Shown in pieces: positions 1,602 to 62,721 of a stretch of DNA of 64,000 bases. Numbering within the stretch: the stretch's first letter is position 1; every line of letters starts with the position of its first letter. The stretch spans positions 88,313 through 152,312 of the forward strand of contig JAZDNO010000005.1 of assembly GCA_043799545.1 (NCBI GenBank), written 5' to 3'. The notes beneath the pieces are model-generated. The model did no database searches, was not told where the DNA came from, and saw only the letters and a list, made by a program, of their open reading frames with translations. This DNA comes from Methanobacteriota archaeon. GTDB taxonomy: Archaea > Thermoplasmatota > Thermoplasmata > SG8-5 > DAIRED01. Made by a program: the position numbers and the translations under genes.

Positions 1602-3272
1602 TCACCCTGCCAGGCTCGCGTCCATAGTTGCCATCACAGAGTCGCGGACGCCCGCGGCGTCTTTCTTCAGCTTGTTAACTGCCGATATCATTGCGTTCTT
1701 GTAGGTCTCGTCCTTGACCTCTTTCAAATTGATGAGCACGTTCATGAGCGCACCCTCCACCCCGGTCCAGGCCGCCAGCGCAGCCACTCCAGCATCGGAG
1801 GCCGAGTTTTTATTGCCTTTTTCTGCCACTTCCTTCGCGAGCTCAAGGGCGCGCAAGCACAGCTTCGCCGTTCCCAGCGGCACGCCTATCGCTTTTTTAT
1901 AACCATCCTGGATAGCCGCGTCCCGAGCCGAGATTTGCTCCGGCGTCTTTTTTGGCAGGCGCATCGCCTCCATCAAGGAGTTGAAGGCGCTGGTGTCGTC
2001 GTCCACGCACCTGCATAATCTGTCCTTCACAGATTGCGCCTCGCGCGATAGCTCGTCCATCCTCGCGAAGTCTTGCTCGTACCCTTTCTTGCCCACTGTG
2101 AGGTTCGCCACCATCGCGGCCAGGGCGGCCCCGAGCGCTCCAGACAGGGCGGCAACGCTGCCGCCTCCGGGCGCTGGGGAATCTGAAGAGACTTCGTCGA
2201 CGAAACGCTTCGCGGTCATGGACATGAGCGGAGCATGGGGCGAGAACTGGTATTCGATTACCTTCTTCGAAGGGTCGAACTCGGAGAGCTGGTCTAGGCC
2301 GAGCGATTTCACGGCCATGGCTATGAGCTCGTAGTCTGGAACCCCCGTCGATTTGCCCTGCCTTTTGAAATAGTATCTCCCAGCCTCCAGAAGGGGCTCG
2401 AGGGGGATGAGCCCGACCAGCTCGCTGCCCGTTACCCGCAGGCCAAGTTTGTGGGCTCCCTCGCAGGCAGCCTCGAAGACGGCGTGGGGCGGGGTCATTT
2501 TCCAATTGGTCAGGTTGATGGAAATCTGTGCCTGGCCGTACTGCTCGATGTACCATCCTACGGCCTTGACCGCTTTGAACTTCCCCGGAATTTTGACAGT
2601 GTTGCCGTCGGCGTCCTTCAGGGTCTTCCCGTCAGGACCCTTCTTGGGTCTTCCAGCCTCGCGGATGTCCAGCGCGATTTCGTGCGCCAGCTTCTTGTCC
2701 TTTGTGTTCAGGTTGACGTTGTACGCTATGAGAAAATCGCGCGCCCCGATTATAACCGCCCCGGTCTTAGGCTTGAATTCCGAGGGGCCGAAATCTGGCT
2801 TCCATTCGGATTTCTTCAGCTTCTCCAGGAGACCCTCGTACTCACCCGCTCGTACTTCAGCTAGGTTGCGGCGCTCCGGTTTTGTAGCCGCATGCTCGTA
2901 GAGATATACGGGTATCTCCAGCTCCCTGCCTACGCGTTCCCCGACCTCCCGCGCGAGCGCCACGCAGTCATCCATGGTCACCCCGGAGACTGGAATGAAC
3001 GGGCAGACGTCGGTGGCGCCCATGCGCGCGTGCGCGCCGTGGTGCTTGCCCATGTCAATGACCTCGGAGGCTTTTCTAATCGCCTGGAAGGCAGCTTCCT
3101 TGACCCCCTCGGGCGAACCGACAAAGGTCACTACTGTGCGGTTCGTATCGGCTCCGGGGTCGACGTCCAGAAGCTTCACGTCCGGCACCTCCTTGATGGC
3201 ATCGGTTATGGCTTCTATCTTCTTCAGGTCCCGCCCCTCGCTGAAGTTCGGAACGCACTCGACGATTCTCAT
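1602..3272 (-). CDS. ftcD: Bifunctional glutamate formimidoyltransferase / formimidoyl-THF cyclodeaminase
   Basis: N-terminal ECVPNFSEGR, HHGAHARMGATDVCPF, C-terminal cyclodeaminase SPAPGGGSVAAL. Confidence 0.95.
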   Translation of the reverse strand: MRIVECVPNFSEGRDLKKIEAITDAIKEVPDVKLLDVDPGADTNRTVVTFVGSPEGVKEAAFQAIRKASEVIDMGKHHGAHARMGATDVCPFIPVSGVTMDDCVALAREVGERVGRELEIPVYLYEHAATKPERRNLAEVRAGEYEGLLEKLKKSEWKPDFGPSEFKPKTGAVIIGARDFLIAYNVNLNTKDKKLAHEIALDIREAGRPKKGPDGKTLKDADGNTVKIPGKFKAVKAVGWYIEQYGQAQISINLTNWKMTPPHAVFEAACEGAHKLGLRVTGSELVGLIPLEPLLEAGRYYFKRQGKSTGVPDYELIAMAVKSLGLDQLSEFDPSKKVIEYQFSPHAPLMSMTAKRFVDEVSSDSPAPGGGSVAALSGALGAALAAMVANLTVGKKGYEQDFARMDELSREAQSVKDRLCRCVDDDTSAFNSLMEAMRLPKKTPEQISARDAAIQDGYKKAIGVPLGTAKLCLRALELAKEVAEKGNKNSASDAGVAALAAWTGVEGALMNVLINLKEVKDETYKNAMISAVNKLKKDAAGVRDSVMATMDASLAG

Positions 3273-51408: not shown

Positions 51409-52146
51409 TCACTCGCTCTCAATCCTCGGCGCGAGCAGGTACTGCCCCTCTCCTTTGCCCGAGGCTATTGTGAAGTCTATCTTGACCGGGTAGTCGTTCC
51501 CCATCTGCATCATTAGAGTCGGGGCGCTCTGGATGGCCTTTATCATGTTCGAGAAGTAGTCCAGCGGAAAGAGCGAGCGTGCGGATTCCTTGCATTCCAG
51601 CAGTTCGAGCGCGTCCTTCGGCAGCTTGAGGTCCACGTGGTCGGTGTCCCCCTCGGCGACGACTTCGAAACTGTCTGGGTTGGCAACGAGGGCTAGGTGG
51701 TCCGATATAGACTCGGACGCCCGTATGCCCTGGCGCAGTTGCTCAGTGCTGATGACAATCTTGACCGGGAGGTTGAGGTTCGGGACCTTGGGGTCGGACA
51801 TCCCGGCGGGGTCCACGAGGGCCATCGTCCTGTTGATGTTGCCCACCTTGAACTGGAGGACGTTCTTCTCCTCGTTGTGCTCTATGGAGATTATGTCGCC
51901 CGGCTTGGCCAGCCTCAGGACTTCCTTGACCTTGTCCAAGTCAACGCCCAGCTCCGTTTCGGTGGCGCTGTATTCCTCGAAGGCGTCCTTCTTCAATGTG
52001 ATGTCCACCATCGCGACGTGCGCCGGGTCGACGGCCTTGACGACGAGCTTGCTCTTCGTCGCCGTGAACTTGGCCTCGTCGACCAGGACGGACACGATGT
52101 CCACAAGCTCTTTCAGCACTTCTGGTTTAATCTTCGTCTTGAACAT
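51409..52146 (-). CDS. pcn: PCNA sliding clamp
   Basis: KAVDPAHVAMV, GNDYPVKI, YLLAPRIE. Confidence 0.97.
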   Translation of the reverse strand: MFKTKIKPEVLKELVDIVSVLVDEAKFTATKSKLVVKAVDPAHVAMVDITLKKDAFEEYSATETELGVDLDKVKEVLRLAKPGDIISIEHNEEKNVLQFKVGNINRTMALVDPAGMSDPKVPNLNLPVKIVISTEQLRQGIRASESISDHLALVANPDSFEVVAEGDTDHVDLKLPKDALELLECKESARSLFPLDYFSNMIKAIQSAPTLMMQMGNDYPVKIDFTIASGKGEGQYLLAPRIESE

Positions 52147-52250
52147 GCTCCCCCTCTTTATCGGTTGTAGGTGGTGAAGGAGGTATGGTTTATAAGGATT
52201 TCGTGGTGAGACCGCCAAATGATTTATAGGGGGGTGCACATCGAAGAGCG

Positions 52251-53234: not shown

Positions 53235-53483
53235 ATGCGCTGCCGCATTTCCATCACTTTCGAGCTGGACTCGCCAGAGCAGGCCAAAGCCGTTGCAGCC
53301 GCGGTCAGAGTGGACGATGATTGTTACGTTAAAACGGGGGTCGAAGGGAAAACAGTCCGAGCGACCGCGGAGGCAGACAGCCCGAAGGCCCTGATGCACA
53401 CGCTCGACGACTACATCTCCTGCGCGTCCGTCGCCATCAAGGCTTCGTCCTCGCGGCCTGCCCGAGCCCCTCTCGGACCTTGA
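53235..53483 (+). CDS. pcc1: KEOPS complex subunit Pcc1
   Basis: Small alpha/beta protein: AVRVDD...AEADSPKALMHTLDDYISC. Confidence 0.8.
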   Translation: MRCRISITFELDSPEQAKAVAAAVRVDDDCYVKTGVEGKTVRATAEADSPKALMHTLDDYISCASVAIKASSSRPARAPLGP

Positions 53484-55401
53484 CCGCCATGCCCTTTTTA
53501 AAATCCAGCATCTCGTCTGGCGCCATCACGAGCTGCCCGGCGGCCAGGAACTCGTCTTTTTCAGTGACCACGATGCACTCGTCCCCCGGCCTGAGCCCGG
53601 GGTCGCAGGCCAGAATGAAGCCCGCGAAGGCGCTCTTGCCCTGGACTACGAACTCCGCCGCATCTTGATGCACGGCGACTCTCAGCCTCGGCGCGTCCGT
53701 CGCCCCGAACAAGATGTGCGCACCCTCCAGCTTCAAGGTGAACATGCCGTCTTCGGCGCGCATCGAGAGAACGTGGCGCTCGTCCAGATAGACGTTCCGT
53801 ATCTTTCCCGTGTTTTTGGAGGTGACCAGCCGGACCTTTCCATCCGTCAGCGCCGCGCCAGCGCCCTTCCCGAACTGGTAATCGGCCACTGCCGCCACGC
53901 GCTCGATGTCCAGATTCCTGTCTCTTCTCGGGTCGATTCTCGCCAGCGCTTCCAGCTTGCACTCCATGTCGCATACGACGAACTCCAGCGCTCCGCCGAA
54001 GCGTTCCCGGAACCCCTTCGACGACCCGCGCGCACGCTCCCGCGATTCTCCGTCCAGCATTTCCGGCACCATCGATTGCGCAATCGGGTAGACCTCGTCC
54101 AACCCTATCGGAACAGTGCCGAAGTACCCCTCCACCCCAATCTCGGCCCCACTGCACTGGACTATGCCCTCAATCATTCGGGCCCAGTCCCTGGAGTACG
54201 GCTTTCCCCTCTCGGGCAGCAATGCCATCGCCTTGGCATCGCCGGGGTGCCAGCGCTCGAACACGCGCGTTTCGAACCTCTTGACCGCGGGCCTCAGCCT
54301 CGATTCCGGTCCGAGATGGAAGAACGCGCCCGGCCTGCTTATGGGCTCATGTCTTTCCATGAAATCCGCGTGCTCGGGCAGAGCCCTCAGCGCATCCAGG
54401 AGCTGGGGGTGCGCCCTGGCGCGGTTCTCCGCAAGCTCCCACAGCCGGCCCTCGCGTATGGCCTCCCTCACGCGCCTGAGCTCTCCGAAGCTGACGTGCA
54501 AGTTGTGCTCGGCCAGGAGCCTGACCTTGTTCTCAGATTTTTCGACTTCCGATGGTGTGTGGGTAGAGCACATGGGGCACTCGCAGGGGAACTCCTTCAT
54601 GCCTGCCAGGTCGCGCGTGCCGTCGGGGAAGAGCATCCTGCCGTCCGCAGAGAACTTAGCGTATGAAGCGGAATCGAACATGTCGCAGCCAAGCAGGGCC
54701 AGCAGCGGAAATACCATCGGATGCCCCGCGCCGAAGGCGTGGACCGGCCGGGCCAGGGTGAGCCCCCTCTTAGCAGAAGCTACGGCGTGAACGAGGTCCG
54801 TGAATCGGTACGACTCCATCAGAGGGACTATCCCCCCGACGGGATGGATCTCGAAATCGAGCTTCGACATCTCATAGGCGCAGCTCTCGCGCAAGTCGCG
54901 GTAAACGCCGCCCTGTATCGGCCCGGCGAGGGCCATCTCCCCCTTAAGCCCGCAGGCCTCCCGTCCCCTGGCGAGGTTTTCTCCGACGGCATTCATCGCC
55001 ATCTGTTTGTCGTCTCCGGGCTCGGAGAAGATGTCCAGAATCGTCCCGATGTCCGAGCCTATGTCCCGCTGGAATTCCACAATATCTCGATTCGTAACAT
55101 CGACGCGCCCGTAAACGTGCGCCTGGAAAGTGCCCGAGTCCGTCATTATCGGCCCTTCGAAGTCAAGGAGGCCGTGCAGGCCTTCCGCCAGCGCGCGCTC
55201 CCTCAATTCAGGGGTGCGCCTGATGATGTAGCTGTTCGTGATAAAAGCCTGGCAGCCGAAGCGCTCCGCCATCTCCTTGGGGGGAACGAGAATCTTGTTG
55301 GGGTTGATGACTGGCAGCAGGGCCGGCGTTTCCAGCGTGCGCTTGCCCAGGGTCAGCCTGCCGATTCGGCCGAGGCCGTCGCGCTCCGTGACATCGAACA
55401 T
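53437..55401 (-). CDS. tgtA: Archaeosine tRNA-guanine(15) transglycosylase with PUA domain
   Basis: RDGLGRIG, ETPALLPVINP, MTDSGTFQ, HAFGAGHP, DMFDSASY, C.CP.C, C-terminal PUA. Confidence 0.96.
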   Translation of the reverse strand: MFDVTERDGLGRIGRLTLGKRTLETPALLPVINPNKILVPPKEMAERFGCQAFITNSYIIRRTPELRERALAEGLHGLLDFEGPIMTDSGTFQAHVYGRVDVTNRDIVEFQRDIGSDIGTILDIFSEPGDDKQMAMNAVGENLARGREACGLKGEMALAGPIQGGVYRDLRESCAYEMSKLDFEIHPVGGIVPLMESYRFTDLVHAVASAKRGLTLARPVHAFGAGHPMVFPLLALLGCDMFDSASYAKFSADGRMLFPDGTRDLAGMKEFPCECPMCSTHTPSEVEKSENKVRLLAEHNLHVSFGELRRVREAIREGRLWELAENRARAHPQLLDALRALPEHADFMERHEPISRPGAFFHLGPESRLRPAVKRFETRVFERWHPGDAKAMALLPERGKPYSRDWARMIEGIVQCSGAEIGVEGYFGTVPIGLDEVYPIAQSMVPEMLDGESRERARGSSKGFRERFGGALEFVVCDMECKLEALARIDPRRDRNLDIERVAAVADYQFGKGAGAALTDGKVRLVTSKNTGKIRNVYLDERHVLSMRAEDGMFTLKLEGAHILFGATDAPRLRVAVHQDAAEFVVQGKSAFAGFILACDPGLRPGDECIVVTEKDEFLAAGQLVMAPDEMLDFKKGMAVKVREGLGQAARTKP

Positions 55402-55570
55402 CGTACCTTGAAAGGTGTGGGGGATAAAAAGGGCGCGGCACCCGGTTGGAACGCCCATGCGGGGCATCGATGCCGGGGGCGGCGTTAAAAAATTATGACT
55501 GGACGGCGCACTCCGTGTCGACGAATCCATGGCAAACCTTCAAGTATCCCGAAATCGATTCGCCAGACCG

Positions 55571-56320
55571 ATGGCAAAAAGGAAGAAATCCAAGGCAGAG
55601 GTCCGGCAGGGCTCGACTAAAAGCCTGGCAAGACGATATTACATATGGATGCTGACGGTCGCCGTGGCCATCGTAGTCGTGACGGCGCTGTATTATCAGA
55701 TTCAGGACGATGGGGGGGGCGGGGGTAGCAACCGGAACCGCCTGGCAGACCCCAGTTTCGAGAACAGCCCGTCGGGATGGACCTACCTCTCTTGGTCCGA
55801 ATTCTGGATACCTTTCAGCATAAGCGACGGGGTATCATACAGCGGCGCACACTCGGCCCAGCTGACCATCCGGGCGACGCCTTATTCGAGAAACACGACG
55901 GTGTGCGGGGTATCGCAGGACATTGCGATAGGCGTCATGCCCGAGAAGATTGGCGGATACTACCAGGTCAGGAACTGGACTCGGGGGGCTGCAAAACAGT
56001 ACATTCAGTGTGTCGTCATGGCTTTCAACGCCACCGGCATGGAGTACCCAGTCCAGCTCAGGTACATCATGGCCGGTGCGAATGAGGCCCCATTCGAGCT
56101 CGGAAACGCCAAGTTCATATTCATAACGCAGAGCGAGCCCGTCGAAAATACCTGGGTCCGATTCGAGAGGAATCTGTGGCAGGACTATACGGAATACTGG
56201 GCTTTCGTCCCTTCGGACTTTACCTCCATGCGCGTGGCGTTCGAGGTCAGGTACGAGGATGTTCCCTACGACGTCGCCTCGGCGGACGTGTACTGGGACG
56301 ACGTGTACTTGGGCGGATGA
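55571..56320 (+). CDS. Membrane-anchored extracellular protein with probable carbohydrate-binding beta-sandwich
   Basis: Basic N-terminus, TM helix, Gly linker, NRLADPSFE...GW and YWDDVYL (CBM4/9-like ends). Confidence 0.7.
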   Translation: MAKRKKSKAEVRQGSTKSLARRYYIWMLTVAVAIVVVTALYYQIQDDGGGGGSNRNRLADPSFENSPSGWTYLSWSEFWIPFSISDGVSYSGAHSAQLTIRATPYSRNTTVCGVSQDIAIGVMPEKIGGYYQVRNWTRGAAKQYIQCVVMAFNATGMEYPVQLRYIMAGANEAPFELGNAKFIFITQSEPVENTWVRFERNLWQDYTEYWAFVPSDFTSMRVAFEVRYEDVPYDVASADVYWDDVYLGG

Positions 56321-56427
56321 AATTTACAATTGTTCGAATGCACAAAACCGATGGCAGGATTGCGTACATGAGCCAGGGCCCGAAGACGGGCCTCAACGGG
56401 GGCACATAAGCGATGGACAGCCGCGTT

Positions 56428-57807
56428 TCAGGGCGCCGGAGCGCCCTCTCCATCCTTCTTCGCCCTTTTTTCCAGGCGCCCGGCCAGATAAGCCTGTATC
56501 CCCTCATCCATGAACGTCTTGGTGAAGGAACAGAACGGCGAGGGGGCGTCCAGTTTGCCAGTATATGCGTACGAGTGCATCCGGCATCCTCCGCCGCAGA
56601 CCCTCAGCCACACGCATCCTCGGCAATCGGCAAGCCCCTCGATCTTGAGTGAATTCCTCCAAAGTTTTGAAGGCTCGGAGTTTTTCCATATCTCCTCAAG
56701 CGGGGATTCTTTGACGCCACCCAGGCGGAACTGGGGGAAGTGCGACGACTGACACGGATACACCGAACCGTCGGCGTCGATGCTCAGCGAATCGAGGCCA
56801 GCGCCGCAGGAGTAAGCGCCGTCGAACGTCCCGGCCATGAACGTCGACTGCGTCCCCTCGTTCTCCACCCTGATGTTTATCTTCGCCGCCGTCAAACGCG
56901 CGTGCATCTCTCTCCAGAACATCTCGAAGTCGCCTTCGTCCAGCATCAGCACCCTGTCGCCCTTCCCGAACGGCATCAGTATCCCGGTCTTGATGCACTG
57001 GATGGCATGGCGCTCGGCCACGTCGACGACGTGGAAGACGTCCCTGAGATTCTTTTTAGAGACAGTAGCGGAAATCTTCACGCGCGCCCCTGCGGCGGAC
57101 AGCAAGCGGATGGCTCGCAGCGCTTTTGAGTAACTCCCGCGCCCGCGCATCGCGTCATGCACCTCCTCCGTGCCGTCAAGGCTTACCTGCACCTCCACGA
57201 ACCGCTTGGCGATGTGGGGGGCGTTCTCCTCGGTGACGAGCGTGCCGTTCGTCGCCAGCCACATCCGGACCTCCCCCCCGTTGCGCCCCGTCGCCGCGGC
57301 ATAATCGCACAGTTCCCAAAAATCGGGATGGAGCATCGGTTCACCGCCCGTTATCGCTATCCCCTGCACCTTCCCGCCCAAGGCCCTCACTTGGTCTATG
57401 ACACCCTTCAGCGCATCCGTGGAAAGTTCTCCTTCCAGACCTTTGCCTGCTGAGAGGTAGCAGTAGCTGCATCCGAGGTTGCACCGCCTTGTAAGGTGCA
57501 GGTATGCGACATCGAGGTCGTGCGCCTTCGCGCCGATGGGAGCCCCCTCACTCTCGAGGAAGCCCTGACGATCGAGCAGCGCGAGCATGTTCTTTGCAAG
57601 AATCGCCGCCTTCTCCGGCGGCAGGCTATGCTTCTCGACAAGTTCGCGCGAGACGCCTTCAACCGTCCGCGTCCCGTCGAACAGGCGCATCGCGTCCAGA
57701 TCGGTTCGCGTGCCGGACCACCATCCAGGCTTGTGCGGGTTGAAGACGAAGTACTCGCCTTTGAACTCTCGCACCATGCAATCCGTGATGGCCTTGTGCC
57801 TCTCCAT
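56428..57807 (-). CDS. Radical SAM/SPASM peptide maturase with N-terminal PqqD/RRE-like domain
   Basis: CNLGCSYC, ITGGEP, SLDG; 7-Cys SPASM C-x12-G-x4-C...CxxC-x5-C-x3-C-x17-C; N-terminal FDGTRTVEGVSRELVEKH...LLDRQGFL wHTH; AGGTGA SD before ATG 57807. Confidence 0.92.
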   Translation of the reverse strand: MERHKAITDCMVREFKGEYFVFNPHKPGWWSGTRTDLDAMRLFDGTRTVEGVSRELVEKHSLPPEKAAILAKNMLALLDRQGFLESEGAPIGAKAHDLDVAYLHLTRRCNLGCSYCYLSAGKGLEGELSTDALKGVIDQVRALGGKVQGIAITGGEPMLHPDFWELCDYAAATGRNGGEVRMWLATNGTLVTEENAPHIAKRFVEVQVSLDGTEEVHDAMRGRGSYSKALRAIRLLSAAGARVKISATVSKKNLRDVFHVVDVAERHAIQCIKTGILMPFGKGDRVLMLDEGDFEMFWREMHARLTAAKINIRVENEGTQSTFMAGTFDGAYSCGAGLDSLSIDADGSVYPCQSSHFPQFRLGGVKESPLEEIWKNSEPSKLWRNSLKIEGLADCRGCVWLRVCGGGCRMHSYAYTGKLDAPSPFCSFTKTFMDEGIQAYLAGRLEKRAKKDGEGAPAP

Positions 57808-57855
57808 GCGTTCACCTAGAAACAATAAGATGTTAAGGGTTTTTGTGCTGTCCGA

Positions 57856-57999
57856 TTATGGCTGGATCGGGTTCCCCGCCCACGGGCCGATTATTATCAT
57901 TATTCCCGCGGTGCCTGGCGGCAGGCCGTGGTCGCACGGGCCGTGGCACGAGTTCATCGAACCGCCCTCTCCATTGCTCTCGTTTACTACATCGCTCAT
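57856..57999 (-). CDS. Putative RiPP precursor peptide, 47 aa: MSDVVNESNGEGGSMNSCHGPCDHGLPPGTAGIMIIIGPWAGNPIQP
   Basis: Manual translation (below the ORF-track cutoff); GGAGG SD 7 nt before ATG; TATA-like boxes at 58025-58032 and 58073-58082; stop is 48 nt before the rSAM start. Confidence 0.75.
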   Translation of the reverse strand: MSDVVNESNGEGGSMNSCHGPCDHGLPPGTAGIMIIIGPWAGNPIQP

Positions 58000-58255
58000 T
58001 TATTTTCCTCCCTTCAACAGGGTACTTTTATAGCGCCCCTACTCGGCGCTTCGGCACGAAATAATGGCGTTCTTATATAAATGTTGCGACGCGGGCCTCA
58101 TAAAATGACGCCATATGCGATGGAACATGCGTTCCGGCATTCATGAGGGGGGAGTCGCAACGGACGGCATGCGCAAAGGGGGAATGATGCGCGAGGGGAG
58201 GGAGCTTTACCTCTTCGTCAATGGGTGAAGCAAGGTTGGACGGCGTCCCGGGCTT

Positions 58256-58927
58256 CTACTGAGCCGACGTTATGATTATGTGCACCAGCTCGCTTGAGCT
58301 CTTGACGTTGTCGAGGGCGTTCTCCAGCGCGTAGAGCAGATCGCGCATGACCGAGATGACCCGGGGGTCGATGTCCGAGAGCATCAGGTCCTTCTTTATC
58401 GCGAAGTAGTCGTCGTCCACTTCGTGTTCGAGACGGTCCACGTCGGCGGCGTATCTTCCAATGTCCTGGTTGTTCACGCCGAGGCTGTCCATGAGTCCCT
58501 TGAGCGCTGTCACGGCCGAGACGGCCTTGAGGGTGATTACCCGGTATTTGCCCCACATCTCTGGCGGAATTTTGACGTTGCTCTCGATCAGTATCTCCAG
58601 GTTCATCGCCGCACTCTTAATCCAATCGGAGATGTGGTCCTGGCGCTTGACGAGGTGCATGAGGTCCTCCCTCTCCTTCGATGGCAGATCTCCCGTCGCA
58701 AGGGTCTCGTGCATCCTGAGCTCGATGTTGTCCGCCGCCTTTTCGGCCAAAATCACGCGCTGTATGTCCTTGAGCGCCTCGGCCTTCTCCCCGCCCTCGA
58801 CATGCATCATCGCCGTGTCCATGTCCCGCGCCGAGTCCAAAATTTTTAGCAGGTGCTCCCTTGCGGTGTCGAGCACGGTCGATTCCCTTCTCTTCCTGAA
58901 CCACGAGCTAAGCGCCTTCTCATTCAA
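58256..58927 (-). CDS. DUF47 / PhoU-like transport regulator
   Basis: EKAADNIE, REDLMHLV..QD.ISD, EHEVDD...K, LENALD. Confidence 0.88.
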   Translation of the reverse strand: MNEKALSSWFRKRRESTVLDTAREHLLKILDSARDMDTAMMHVEGGEKAEALKDIQRVILAEKAADNIELRMHETLATGDLPSKEREDLMHLVKRQDHISDWIKSAAMNLEILIESNVKIPPEMWGKYRVITLKAVSAVTALKGLMDSLGVNNQDIGRYAADVDRLEHEVDDDYFAIKKDLMLSDIDPRVISVMRDLLYALENALDNVKSSSELVHIIITSAQ

Positions 58928-60014
58928 GTTTCAACACCTCCGCCAAACCTTCCCTTGGAGTCTGATACACCAGGCAGCGGTCGGGGTCCATGTCCACCCT
59001 CACCGCTTCTCCCCTATTAAACGTTCTCGTTTCCGTGTGCGCGTCGACTGCGATGTCCTCGCCGCTCAGCAGCCTTGCCCGGTATCTCGTGAAAGAGCCC
59101 ATGAACGTGGTTTCAGCCATCGTTCCGGGCATCCCCGGTCCGTCGGACGATATCGAGCAATTCTCCGGCCTGCAGGCAACCACGACGGGCGAACCGGTCA
59201 AGAAATTCCGCTCCTCGTCCAGGGCGCGGATTACCGTTCCGTTTCTGGCAATCACCACCGCATATCGCTCATGCCTCTCGACGACAGTCCCTTCGATGAA
59301 GTTCATCTCCCCTATGAAGTTGGCTGTGAACAGGCTCTTTGGTTTTTCGTAGAGGTCTGATGGCGTGCCTTCCTCGATTATCCTGCCCGCCCGCATGAGG
59401 ACGATGCGGTCGGAAACGGACATCGCTTCCTCCTGGTCGTGGGTGACGTGGACCGCCGTGAGGCCCAGTTCCTTGACGTACCTTCGTAGCTCGTAACGCA
59501 GCGAGACCCTCACGCGGGCATCCAGAGCGCTCAGCGGCTCGTCGAAAATGACAATCTTCGATTCCGAAGCCAGCGCGCGGGCGATTCCGACCTTCTGCTG
59601 CGCCCCACCACTCAGCTCTCCCGGCATCTTGCCTTCCGAGCCTTCCAGCCTCGCCCTCGACATCATCGCCGAGGCGATTTCTCCCGCCTTTTCCCTTTTC
59701 CCCTTGACGATTGGGGAGTAGGTGACGTTCTGCATTACGCTCATGTGGGGGAAGAGGGCGATGTTCTGGAACACGTAGCCCACGTCGCGCTCGCATGTGG
59801 GTGTGTTTTCCATCTTCTTATCGTCTATGAACGCCTCCCCCTCCGTGGGGTCCCATATCCCCGAAATGATTTTGACGAGGGTCGTCTTGCCGCAACCGCT
59901 CGGACCCAGTATAGTCACATACTCTTTGTCGGCGACCTTGAGATTCACATCCTCGGCGGCCGTCACCGGACCGAAGCGCTTCGCGACCTTGCGGAGCTCT
60001 ATGCTCGGCATCAA
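58920..60014 (-). CDS. ABC transporter ATP-binding subunit (PotA/CysA/FbpC-like)
   Basis: GPSGCGKTT, LSGGAQQ, DEPLSALD, HDQEEA, TOBE tail. Confidence 0.95.
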   Translation of the reverse strand: MMPSIELRKVAKRFGPVTAAEDVNLKVADKEYVTILGPSGCGKTTLVKIISGIWDPTEGEAFIDDKKMENTPTCERDVGYVFQNIALFPHMSVMQNVTYSPIVKGKREKAGEIASAMMSRARLEGSEGKMPGELSGGAQQKVGIARALASESKIVIFDEPLSALDARVRVSLRYELRRYVKELGLTAVHVTHDQEEAMSVSDRIVLMRAGRIIEEGTPSDLYEKPKSLFTANFIGEMNFIEGTVVERHERYAVVIARNGTVIRALDEERNFLTGSPVVVACRPENCSISSDGPGMPGTMAETTFMGSFTRYRARLLSGEDIAVDAHTETRTFNRGEAVRVDMDPDRCLVYQTPREGLAEVLKLE

Positions 60015-61102
60015 TCCACCTCCAGTTCGGCAGCCAATCCAATCGACGGGACCTTGAAAAGCTTGACATGCTCCGGTGGCAGGTGTATCCAGACGGTTTT
60101 GCCCTCATCCCGGCCCGCCGCCTCCCTGGCCGTCATTTTGCAGCGCAGCAGCCCGCACTCCGTCTCCACCTCGAGCATCACATACTTTCCGAGGAAGAGC
60201 CTGCGCACGACTTTCCCATCGATTGCCGTATTCGTCTTTTTATCCCCGACGGCGACCCTCTCGGCCTTGATTCCAGCCACGCATCGGCCGAGCCCCTCAT
60301 AATCGTCCTGGATTCCTTCGATTTCAAGGTGCCTGTCAGCTTCGAACTCCCAGGCCCCATCCTCATTCTCGACCTTGCCTTCGAAGAAATTCGCCTCACC
60401 CACGAACTGCATCACGAAAGGCCGCGAAGGCGATTCGTAAATCTCCTTGGGGGTGCCGGCCTGAACCAGGCGCCCCTTTCGTAAAACCAGGATGCGGTCG
60501 GATATCGCCATCGCCTCCTCCTGGTCGTGGGTGACGTGCAGGACAGTCAAACCCAGTTCTTTGGCCAAAACCTTGATTTCGTGCCTTAGCTCTATGCGGA
60601 GTCTGGCATCCAGCGCCCTCAGCGGCTCGTCAAGGAGGAGGATTTGCGCGTCGGCGGCGAGCGCCCTGGCGAGCGCGCACCTCTGCGACATCCCCCCGCT
60701 GAGCTCCCGCGGAAAAGCGTCCTTGCGCTTGAACAGGCGGACCATCTCGAGCATTTCCCTTCCGACGATTTCCACCTTGTCCTTGCGCCATTCGCGGGCC
60801 TTCGGTCCGAACGTGACGTTGTCCCAGACATCCATGTGGGGGAAAAGGGAGTAGGTCTGGGGGAGGAAGGCAATCCTGCGCTTCTCGGGCGCGAGGCCGT
60901 CCACGTTCTTTCCGTCTATGAAGACCTCGCCAGAATCCTGGCGGGTGAGGCCGGAGATGACGCGCATCAGGGTGGTTTTGCCGGCTCCCGACGGGCCCAA
61001 AAGGGTGACGTACTCTCCGGGCTTCACGTCGAAGGAGAAATCGTCCACGGCCGTCGTGTCGCCGTACTTTTTCGTGATGCCCTTTACGACGAGGGTGGTC
61101 AT
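60011..61102 (-). CDS. ABC transporter ATP-binding subunit (second paralogue)
   Basis: GPSGAGKTT, LSGGMSQR, DEPLRALD; ATG 61102 overlaps the permease stop. Confidence 0.95.
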   Translation of the reverse strand: MTTLVVKGITKKYGDTTAVDDFSFDVKPGEYVTLLGPSGAGKTTLMRVISGLTRQDSGEVFIDGKNVDGLAPEKRRIAFLPQTYSLFPHMDVWDNVTFGPKAREWRKDKVEIVGREMLEMVRLFKRKDAFPRELSGGMSQRCALARALAADAQILLLDEPLRALDARLRIELRHEIKVLAKELGLTVLHVTHDQEEAMAISDRILVLRKGRLVQAGTPKEIYESPSRPFVMQFVGEANFFEGKVENEDGAWEFEADRHLEIEGIQDDYEGLGRCVAGIKAERVAVGDKKTNTAIDGKVVRRLFLGKYVMLEVETECGLLRCKMTAREAAGRDEGKTVWIHLPPEHVKLFKVPSIGLAAELEVD

Positions 61103-62721
61103 CCGCGCCCGCCCTCCTTCTTGGTAATGAATCGCATGGATATGATGGCGACGAAGGAAACCCCTATCAACACGATGCAAGCCAGCGCGGCCGCGTACAG
61201 GTTGTCGGCCTTGACCAGCTTCACGATGTAGACAGGAGCCGTCTGCGCAGACGACACCACGGCCTGGGTGGCACCGGTCTCACCCAGACTCCTGGTGAAT
61301 GCCATAATCGCACCCGCGAGGATGGACGCCTTGGTCAGCGGGTAAAGGATGCGCTTGTAGACGCCAAACGGTTTTTCGCCAAGCGTCCTCGCGGTCTCCT
61401 CAAGGGCGGGGTCAACGCCTTCTATCGCGCCTGCAACATTCCTCACGACCAGGGGGTAGGTGAAGGCCACGTGCGCGAAGACCAGCAGCATGAACGACCC
61501 TATGTTCACGTCCGCCCAGAAAAGGCCCAGGGAGAAACCCAGCGCCGCCGTTGGCACCACCAGCGGGACGTTGACTAGGGTGTCCAGCACGGCAGCGACC
61601 TTCTTGTTCTCGCTTCGCGTGATGATTATCGCCAGCGGTATCCCCATCGCCAGGTCTATCCCCGTGACGACCGCCGCCAGCGCGAAGGAGTATCCGATGC
61701 TCCCGCCGAACTCGCCCCAGTTCACGGCGCCCGTGACGGGCTGGGCCGCGTAGGCCATGATGAAGAACGACGGCAGGGTGACGAAGAGTATGAGAAATGC
61801 CATCGCCGACGTGTTCTTGAATCCTGCCGCGTAAGCGGTGCTTAGCCTCTTCTCGACCTTCCTGTACACCCTCTTCATCGGAAGCTTCAGCTTCACGACG
61901 GTTATTTTCAAAGCGGCCAGGAGAATCAGCGAGAGGATAATGAGGAGGATGCTCACGAAAGCCATCGCCGGCACCATCCCTCCCGCGGACTTCCATGTGC
62001 CGATGAGGACGGGGCCCGTCATGAGGGTCGAATCGATGACCGAGAGCGCAATCATCGTCCCGCCAGTCTCGCTCAGGCTGCGCGCAAGGCAGAGGATTAT
62101 CCCGGTGACGAGGCCGGCCCTGAACAGGGGCAACGTGATTGTCCGAACGGCGGTGAACTTGGACGCGCCCAGGGTTTCCCCCGCCGTTTCGTACGTCGTG
62201 TCAATCTCCTCCAGAATCGCCGCGAGGGAGCGCACCATGTACGGATACGTGAATACGATGTGCAGGAGTATCATGATGATTACCGGCGACGATACAAAGG
62301 GGAGGGCTCCGAACGGCCTTTCGCCGTGAACGGAGGTCGCCCAGAAAAGCGCCGTCGAGAGCCCCAGCGCAGCCGTCGGAACGGCCAAAGGCAAATCGAT
62401 GAGCGTATCGAGGATGGCCTTTCCGCGGAACTTCCTCCGGACCATTATCCACGCCATCGGCAAACCGGCGAGGATATCTATCACAACGACCACGGCGGCG
62501 AGCTCGAAGGAGAAGACGACCGCGTCCCACACCAGCTTGGATGTGACGGGGTCGCCCATGACACCCTGGATTCCGTTCCAGTCCGTGAAAACGTAGCTGA
62601 GGACGAATATCGTCGGGACGATGACGAGGAGTACGAAGAAGAGGATGACGAAGCCGTACCAGCCCTTTATCATTCGGCGGTTGGAGGCTAATTCCGAGAG
62701 CTTTTCCGTCAATCCCGACAT
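61099..62721 (-). CDS. ABC permease with two fused TM domains (CysT/CysW-, ModB- or FbpB-like)
   Basis: Two LP.VP.AALG repeats and two EAA loops (YETAGETLGA, LEETARTLGE), SLSET/SLGET. Confidence 0.92.
   Translation of the reverse strand: MSGLTEKLSELASNRRMIKGWYGFVILFFVLLVIVPTIFVLSYVFTDWNGIQGVMGDPVTSKLVWDAVVFSFELAAVVVVIDILAGLPMAWIMVRRKFRGKAILDTLIDLPLAVPTAALGLSTALFWATSVHGERPFGALPFVSSPVIIMILLHIVFTYPYMVRSLAAILEEIDTTYETAGETLGASKFTAVRTITLPLFRAGLVTGIILCLARSLSETGGTMIALSVIDSTLMTGPVLIGTWKSAGGMVPAMAFVSILLIILSLILLAALKITVVKLKLPMKRVYRKVEKRLSTAYAAGFKNTSAMAFLILFVTLPSFFIMAYAAQPVTGAVNWGEFGGSIGYSFALAAVVTGIDLAMGIPLAIIITRSENKKVAAVLDTLVNVPLVVPTAALGFSLGLFWADVNIGSFMLLVFAHVAFTYPLVVRNVAGAIEGVDPALEETARTLGEKPFGVYKRILYPLTKASILAGAIMAFTRSLGETGATQAVVSSAQTAPVYIVKLVKADNLYAAALACIVLIGVSFVAIISMRFITKKEGGRG

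Follow-up and report, generated by a model that had tools for sequence, protein, structure and literature searches.

The stretch of archaeal DNA analysed here (the window; 64,000 nt) contains a 47-aa open reading frame (ORF) upstream of a gene for a radical-SAM enzyme, raising the questions of whether so short an ORF is a gene at all, whether its product is the substrate of the neighbouring enzyme, and which modification that substrate would then carry. A first-pass annotation had proposed that the two genes form a minimal RiPP system. The translation it gave for the peptide was reproduced exactly from the minus strand, the Shine-Dalgarno-like and TATA-like signals it assigned to the ORF can be read directly in the DNA, and the distance from the peptide stop codon to the enzyme ATG at 57807, which we re-measured, is 48 nt as it had stated (Table 1). 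The peptide is not unannotated as had been claimed, in that gene callers do find the ORF, and it is already in a public protein collection as a predicted, unnamed protein (P0121). Its parts are a polar leader (residues 1-13) ending in GG, a Cys core, an Ile/Met hydrophobic tract, and a Gly-Pro-Trp tail. The enzyme ATG has an AGGTGA site 4 nt in front of it; an alternative TTG start at 57825 gives a longer frame and is less likely. Next to the peptide gene's distal TATA-like box, on its upstream side, is an imperfect inverted repeat (58083-58104 and 58140-58161; 22-nt arms, 77% complementary, 35 nt apart) that may act as a regulator site or form a hairpin.

Table 1. Coordinates of the peptide and enzyme genes, their signals and domains, and the surrounding segment.
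Feature	Position in window	Strand	Basis or remark
Segment of ~2.8 kb, present in window, absent from same-genus genome G001	55437-58250		
263-aa membrane-anchored protein gene	55529-56320	plus	
RRE-radical SAM-SPASM enzyme, 459 aa, presumed maturase	56428-57807	minus	Pfam, NCBIfam, alignments, AF2 model
SPASM domain, seven invariant Cys	56518-56820	minus	PF13186 and invariant alignment columns
N-terminal RRE (PqqD-like winged helix), predicted, residues ~1-85	57553-57807	minus	AF2 model, PF05402 on homologues
Putative precursor peptide ORF, 47 aa	57856-57999	minus	ORF list, homologues, profile, selection
Shine-Dalgarno-like GGGAGG	58012-58007	minus	7 nt before peptide ATG, read directly
Candidate promoter region, two TATA-like boxes	58025-58081	minus	Read directly
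Proximal TATA-like box	58032-58025	minus	26-33 nt upstream of peptide ATG
Distal TATA-like box TTTATATA	58081-58074	minus	75-82 nt upstream of peptide ATG

A short ORF in a genome of 59% G+C, where open frames are common, might be a chance open frame in the 5′ region of the enzyme gene. The first-pass annotation had named enzyme homologues without a conserved short ORF as the observation that would count against a precursor; we looked for these, and at each of the six readable loci of the enzyme clade the enzyme gene is preceded on its own strand by a short ORF with a two-Cys core. The six are the window, one locus each in genomes G014 and G006, two in G016 (contigs C77 and C16), and a paralogue on contig C18 of G000, the genome from which the window comes. 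The enzyme's nearest homologues from beyond the species set, P0002 (58% identity), P0004, P0006, and P0007, are not part of this count, and scans of genome and metagenome contigs, which matched generic radical-SAM motifs (relatives of 25-34% identity only), were left out of the peptide census.

The upstream ORFs of G014 (35 aa) and G006 (37 aa) share the core of the window peptide: a Cys, Pro-Cys, a His, Leu-Pro-Pro-Gly, a Gly-Ile-Met-rich tract, and Gly-Pro with an aromatic residue. The 57-aa ORF of G016:C77 resembles the window leader in its N-terminal part and diverges in its core after the second Cys, and the peptides of G016:C16 and G000:C18 are of a more distant type, in which two Cys again lie close together and a hydrophobic stretch comes after them. 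When a profile built from the six upstream peptides was searched against sets of 5.8 billion and 1.84 billion proteins, it matched nine further short peptides of 39-84 aa besides the inputs, at E values from 1e-13 to 5e-5; the one match that is not short, a 1,033-aa protein (P0133; E 2e-6), is probably spurious. The precursor family had not been recognised in the first pass, and the family peptides have no match in Pfam, nor in NCBIfam at E 0.1 or better.

An alignment of 11 close peptides shows four positions without variation (C18, P21, C22, and G32) and two, Y31 and I35, that are almost as constant; at position 31 the window peptide has Ala. Roles had been suggested for H19, the repeated HG (H24), and W40, but these find no support in the conservation, the four positions just named being the only invariant ones. 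Family peptides carry two or three Cys each, the two Cys are retained in the paralogue type (G016:C16 and G000:C18), and apart from the Cys the most conserved feature is the hydrophobic tract that follows the second of them.

Over their first 30 codons, the orthologous peptide genes of G014 and G006 differ at 14 codons synonymously and at two non-synonymously (pN 0.028, pS 0.82; pN/pS ~0.03), and a AAAGGAGGTA site is kept at the equivalent position before both. From the homologous peptides, the low pN/pS, and the kept ribosome-binding site we infer that the ORF is translated and under strong purifying selection. Judged by its conserved homologues and this selection, it is a real gene, far beyond chance; the chance-frame explanation, against which the homologues (E down to 1e-13), the selection, the kept Shine-Dalgarno site, and the gene-finder calls all speak, is effectively refuted by the conservation.

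How the peptide is organised is suggested by two further comparisons. The metagenomic peptide P0128 joins the first 12 residues of the window peptide to a G016-type core, which suggests that leader and core are separable modules, as in RiPP families. The G014 and G006 peptides have just eight residues before the first Cys and yet are strongly constrained, which argues that a classical N-terminal leader would not be universally required as a recognition element. The hydrophobic strand after the Cys pair may be a recognition element, a modification site, or both.

The neighbouring enzyme has the domains that had been assigned to it. Pfam identifies a radical-SAM domain (PF04055, E 8e-26) and a SPASM domain (PF13186, E 1.5e-10); the CxxxCxxC motif (C109/C113/C116) and the seven SPASM Cys (C334, C352, C395, C398, C404, C408, and C426 in the 459-aa numbering) are invariant across 40 homologues, and the latter are predicted to bind two auxiliary Fe-S clusters. 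The Pfam PqqD model does not match the window enzyme itself, and PF05402 is precomputed on its close homologues P0004 and P0006. In the AlphaFold model (mean pLDDT 91.7; about 90-98 in the RRE region), strands at residues 11-15, 18-23, and 28-32 followed by helices at 34-42, 49-60, and 64-80 place a predicted RRE fold at residues 11-80. The N-terminal PqqD-like domain noted earlier is borne out by this fold, by PF05402 on the homologues, and by an alignment to StsB that begins at residue 22. A complex prediction of enzyme, peptide, SAM, and three clusters scored 0.02 and speaks neither for nor against the pairing.

Relatives of the enzyme are 58, 46, 45, 44, 39, and 33% identical to it, those of G014 and G006 being at 46-47%, and the homologue records are named just 'radical SAM protein [Thermoplasmata archaeon]'. 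The clade occurs in four genomes of one order, the window genome included, among the ~840 Thermoplasmatota genomes searched.

A CxxxCxxC motif, a 7-Cys SPASM domain, an RRE fold, and a short precursor gene beside the enzyme are the features of the RRE-dependent radical-SAM/SPASM RiPP class, and since every one of these sequence-level features is present, the system looks like a member of that class. We consider it highly probable that the 47-aa peptide is a precursor and the adjacent enzyme its maturase. The short ORF might instead encode a small protein that the enzyme leaves unmodified, the enzyme acting on a tetrapyrrole (as AhbD and NirJ) or on a protein (as anSME). Models or structures of AhbD, NirJ, and anSME do score in the range of the peptide maturases; but these three enzymes have no RRE and the window enzyme has one, no heme-pathway or sulfatase genes are adjacent, and peptide and enzyme are still adjacent where the enzymes are no more than 32-47% identical and the peptides are of two types. 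We regard a substrate of that kind as quite improbable, and the heme-maturase (AhbD/NirJ) reading in particular was rejected on the model cut-off, the presence of the RRE, and the gene context.

Classification against the TIGRFAM models had been recommended in the first pass, and the enzyme fits no NCBIfam equivalog: no cut-off is reached among the best 25 of 80 matches. The top match is MftC (TIGR03962; 179 bits against a cut-off of 265), followed by StsB (NF045574; 164 against 625), with AhbD at 155 against 500, PapB at 127 against 340, and SkfB at 100 against 300. The StsB, PapB, and SkfB families were rejected on these scores. StsB, of the StsB/StsA sactipeptide system, is the sole match among those 25 to span the RRE, its alignment running from RRE to SPASM (enzyme residues 22-425); however, its score lies far under its cut-off, and the StsA precursor is unrelated to the window peptide. 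MftC is a C-C bond former that acts on a C-terminal Gly-Val-Tyr and makes no thioethers. Its likeness to the window enzyme is in the catalytic and SPASM part, and its substrate MftA is likewise a small peptide; but in mycofactocin systems the RRE is a separate protein (MftB) rather than fused to the enzyme, and the precursor ends in Gly-Val-Tyr, whereas the C-termini of the window family vary and none is of this kind. Moreover, no other mft genes are present at the window locus, and relatives of that locus have exporters. Membership in the mycofactocin family was rejected on the score and on the lack of the Gly-Val-Tyr terminus.

The closest solved structure is the thioether synthase CteB (5WGG/5WHY; profile E 5e-50), which is the best match by Foldseek as well, at ~21% identity, a likeness that partly reflects shared architecture; anSME, SkfB, SuiB, TigE, ChlB, and PqqE follow, and EpeE lies far below CteB. 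CteB and its substrate CteA (SCIFF, thermocellin) of Clostridium thermocellum present the same order of fused N-terminal RRE, radical-SAM barrel, and 7-Cys SPASM domain, and likewise a short Cys-bearing peptide encoded beside the enzyme. However, a SCIFF peptide carries six Cys within about 45 residues, whereas those of the window family carry two or three, and the host here is an archaeon. The peptides have no match to any SCIFF model, the best 25 of the enzyme's 80 NCBIfam matches include no SCIFF maturase, and SCIFF membership was rejected on the Cys counts and the absence of a model match. Because neither the cut-offs nor the precursor features agree, we do not place the system with SCIFF, StsB, PapB, or mycofactocin.

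A review gives no ruling on whether seven Cys imply an open cluster site (PMC10114670). In CteB itself, a substrate Cys is reported to ligate an auxiliary cluster according to the paper on that enzyme. Within the archaea, CrpC of Methanococcus voltae (TIGR04463) was described in 2026 as an RRE-radical SAM-SPASM enzyme that installs ranthionine thioethers in CrpA, a Cys-bearing substrate encoded beside it as here, but one that is a large repeat protein rather than a ~40-aa peptide (PMC13692751). TIGR04463 is not among the best 25 of the 80 NCBIfam matches, and M. voltae belongs to a different organism group from the window host.

The first-pass annotation had noted no exporter or protease next to the pair, and this agrees with what we see: there is no exporter, protease, or second radical-SAM enzyme among the adjacent genes of the window locus, which has the peptide and one enzyme alone, and the neighbouring ABC genes (58920-62721) are importer-type, with TOBE_2 and BPD_transp_1 domains. 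Its description of a minimal two-gene system holds for the window but not for the relatives, in which genes for a DrrA-like ATPase and an ABC-2 permease flank four of the six loci and a second radical-SAM enzyme gene is found at three. In G006 the peptide, enzyme, ATPase, and permease genes all lie on one strand, and in G014 the same ATPase and permease pair is divergent from the peptide and enzyme genes. Both G016:C77 and G000:C18 have the order ATPase, permease, peptide, RRE enzyme, and then a second radical-SAM/SPASM enzyme without an RRE, whereas at G016:C16 there are the peptide and two radical-SAM enzymes, with no pump seen.

The G000:C18 locus is a paralogous five-gene cluster in the window's own genome (32824-37976 of the contig; locus L181 4824-9976; also L014), with a 45-aa two-Cys peptide (P0123) and an RRE enzyme 35% identical to that of the window, and the sole DrrA/ABC-2-type pump found in this genome adjoins it. 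On G016:C16 there is in addition a third RRE-radical SAM gene (L180 9867-11225), with a 43-aa ORF ~300 nt upstream of it (L180 9435-9566, plus strand) that has two Cys and a hydrophobic tail and may be yet another precursor type. On metagenome contig L097, the gene for a distant RRE-radical SAM enzyme (29% identity) is preceded by three ORFs with a repeated Arg-rich unit of ~29 residues (2021-2563, plus strand), which may represent a repeat precursor in one frame or another.

The bare window locus, without exporter or protease, would also suit a precursor of a redox cofactor of the mycofactocin or PQQ kind rather than of a secreted product, and it is MftC that scores best among the curated models. 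But MftC falls short of its cut-off, the peptides lack both a Gly-Val-Tyr end and the Glu/Tyr pair of PqqA, the RRE is fused and not a separate MftB or PqqD, and the locus has no other mycofactocin or PQQ genes; with ABC-2 exporters at four related loci as well, we consider a cofactor precursor very improbable.

For a modified peptide, the reading that we tentatively prefer, at a little short of an even chance for the chemistry itself, is thioether formation from the two invariant Cys onto the conserved downstream segment. We favour it because no reactive side chains other than the Cys are invariant, because no aromatic residue is fixed across the family, and because the nearest characterised enzymes of the same full architecture make thioethers. 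The RRE domain would dock the peptide, the SAM-bound [4Fe-4S] cluster would give rise to a 5′-deoxyadenosyl radical, and this radical would take a hydrogen from a residue of the conserved stretch that follows the second Cys; the thiols of C18 and C22 would bridge to that stretch as thioethers, closing the peptide into a small hairpin like those of sactipeptides and ranthipeptides. In the relatives the product would probably be exported by the adjacent DrrA/ABC-2 pump, as the gene adjacency suggests, and for the window peptide export would be either in trans or absent.

Alternatively, the same pair could carry out other chemistry, such as a C-C or ether cross-link onto an aromatic residue, or epimerisation of residues in the Ile/Val/Met-rich tract to the D form (as by EpeE/YydG), which would yield a membrane-active peptide, and the Cys would then be cluster ligands or form a disulfide or a metal site. 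The strong conservation of the hydrophobic tract is consistent with this, as are SuiB, TigE, PqqE, and EpeE among the structural matches and a C-C bond former, MftC, as the top NCBIfam match; and given that three loci have a second radical-SAM enzyme, more than one type of reaction is likely in the family. But no aromatic residue holds a constant place throughout the family (position 31 is Ala rather than Tyr in the window peptide, and G016-type peptides have no W40), the Cys stand alone as invariant reactive side chains, and EpeE ranks far below CteB among the structures. We regard these other chemistries as unlikely, although a serious consideration.

For the thioether reading, the two invariant Cys and the nearness to CteB, SkfB, and StsB point toward the sactipeptide or ranthipeptide type. 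Counting against the explanation as a whole, the enzyme lies below every curated cut-off and its top NCBIfam match is no thioether maker, the likeness to CteB amounts to just ~21% identity, the window locus is without exporter or protease, the peptides of the closest relatives are nearly leaderless, and the family, at four genomes, is rare. Taken whole, the precursor and maturase pairing with thioether chemistry included, we hold the explanation to be somewhat more probable than its negation. We speculate further that the enzyme recognises the hydrophobic strand after the Cys pair and not an N-terminal leader, in a structurally new archaeal RiPP class with novel cross-links or D-residues. This is distinctly improbable as we see it; if true, it would explain how near-leaderless peptides are functional in the closest relatives, and the product would have a cross-link pattern, or D-residues in the Ile tract, not seen in bacterial sactipeptides and ranthipeptides.

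The peptide, enzyme, and 263-aa protein genes lie together in a strain-variable segment of the genome (Table 1), since the tgtA side and the DUF47 side that flank it, separated by 2.8 kb in the window, come much closer on contig C134 of G001: BLAST coordinates put 65 nt between them, and the junction alignment about 90-130 nt. The G+C content of the segment matches that of the genome, and a search for flanking direct repeats around it found no clean or convincing ones. The 263-aa protein combines a basic N-terminus and a single membrane helix with a beta-sandwich domain that faces outward; its Atlas leads are CBM_4_9 and DUF3047-like. It was found neither in 40 relatives nor beside any homologous enzyme locus, and because of this we rejected it as a part of the peptide system. 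The longest frames of the nearby tgtA-like gene (53437-55530, minus strand; 697 aa) and PCNA-like gene (51409-52239, minus strand; 276 aa) probably overrun the true starts; homology of the tgtA-like gene with G001 stops ~35 nt upstream of an internal Met codon near 55403.

Archaeal radical-SAM peptides have been predicted by the thousand in genome mining, with essentially none of known structure or role (PMC12144867), and it was not until 2026 that an archaeal SPASM enzyme making thioethers was first reported, one of a different family with a protein as its substrate (PMC13692751). Our literature searches found no description of the window peptide family, which, on the comparative evidence, we judge to be a real family of archaeal peptide/maturase pairs, conserved yet rare, whose precursor type is new and uncurated. 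Because many uncharacterised radical-SAM/SPASM families share this architecture, it is one candidate among many, and its value is that of a tractable example rather than a surprise. With two genes, a core that is both conserved and defined, and naturally occurring variants that have or lack a leader and have one enzyme or two, it is a compact test case that could show both the chemistry and the recognition logic of archaeal maturases.
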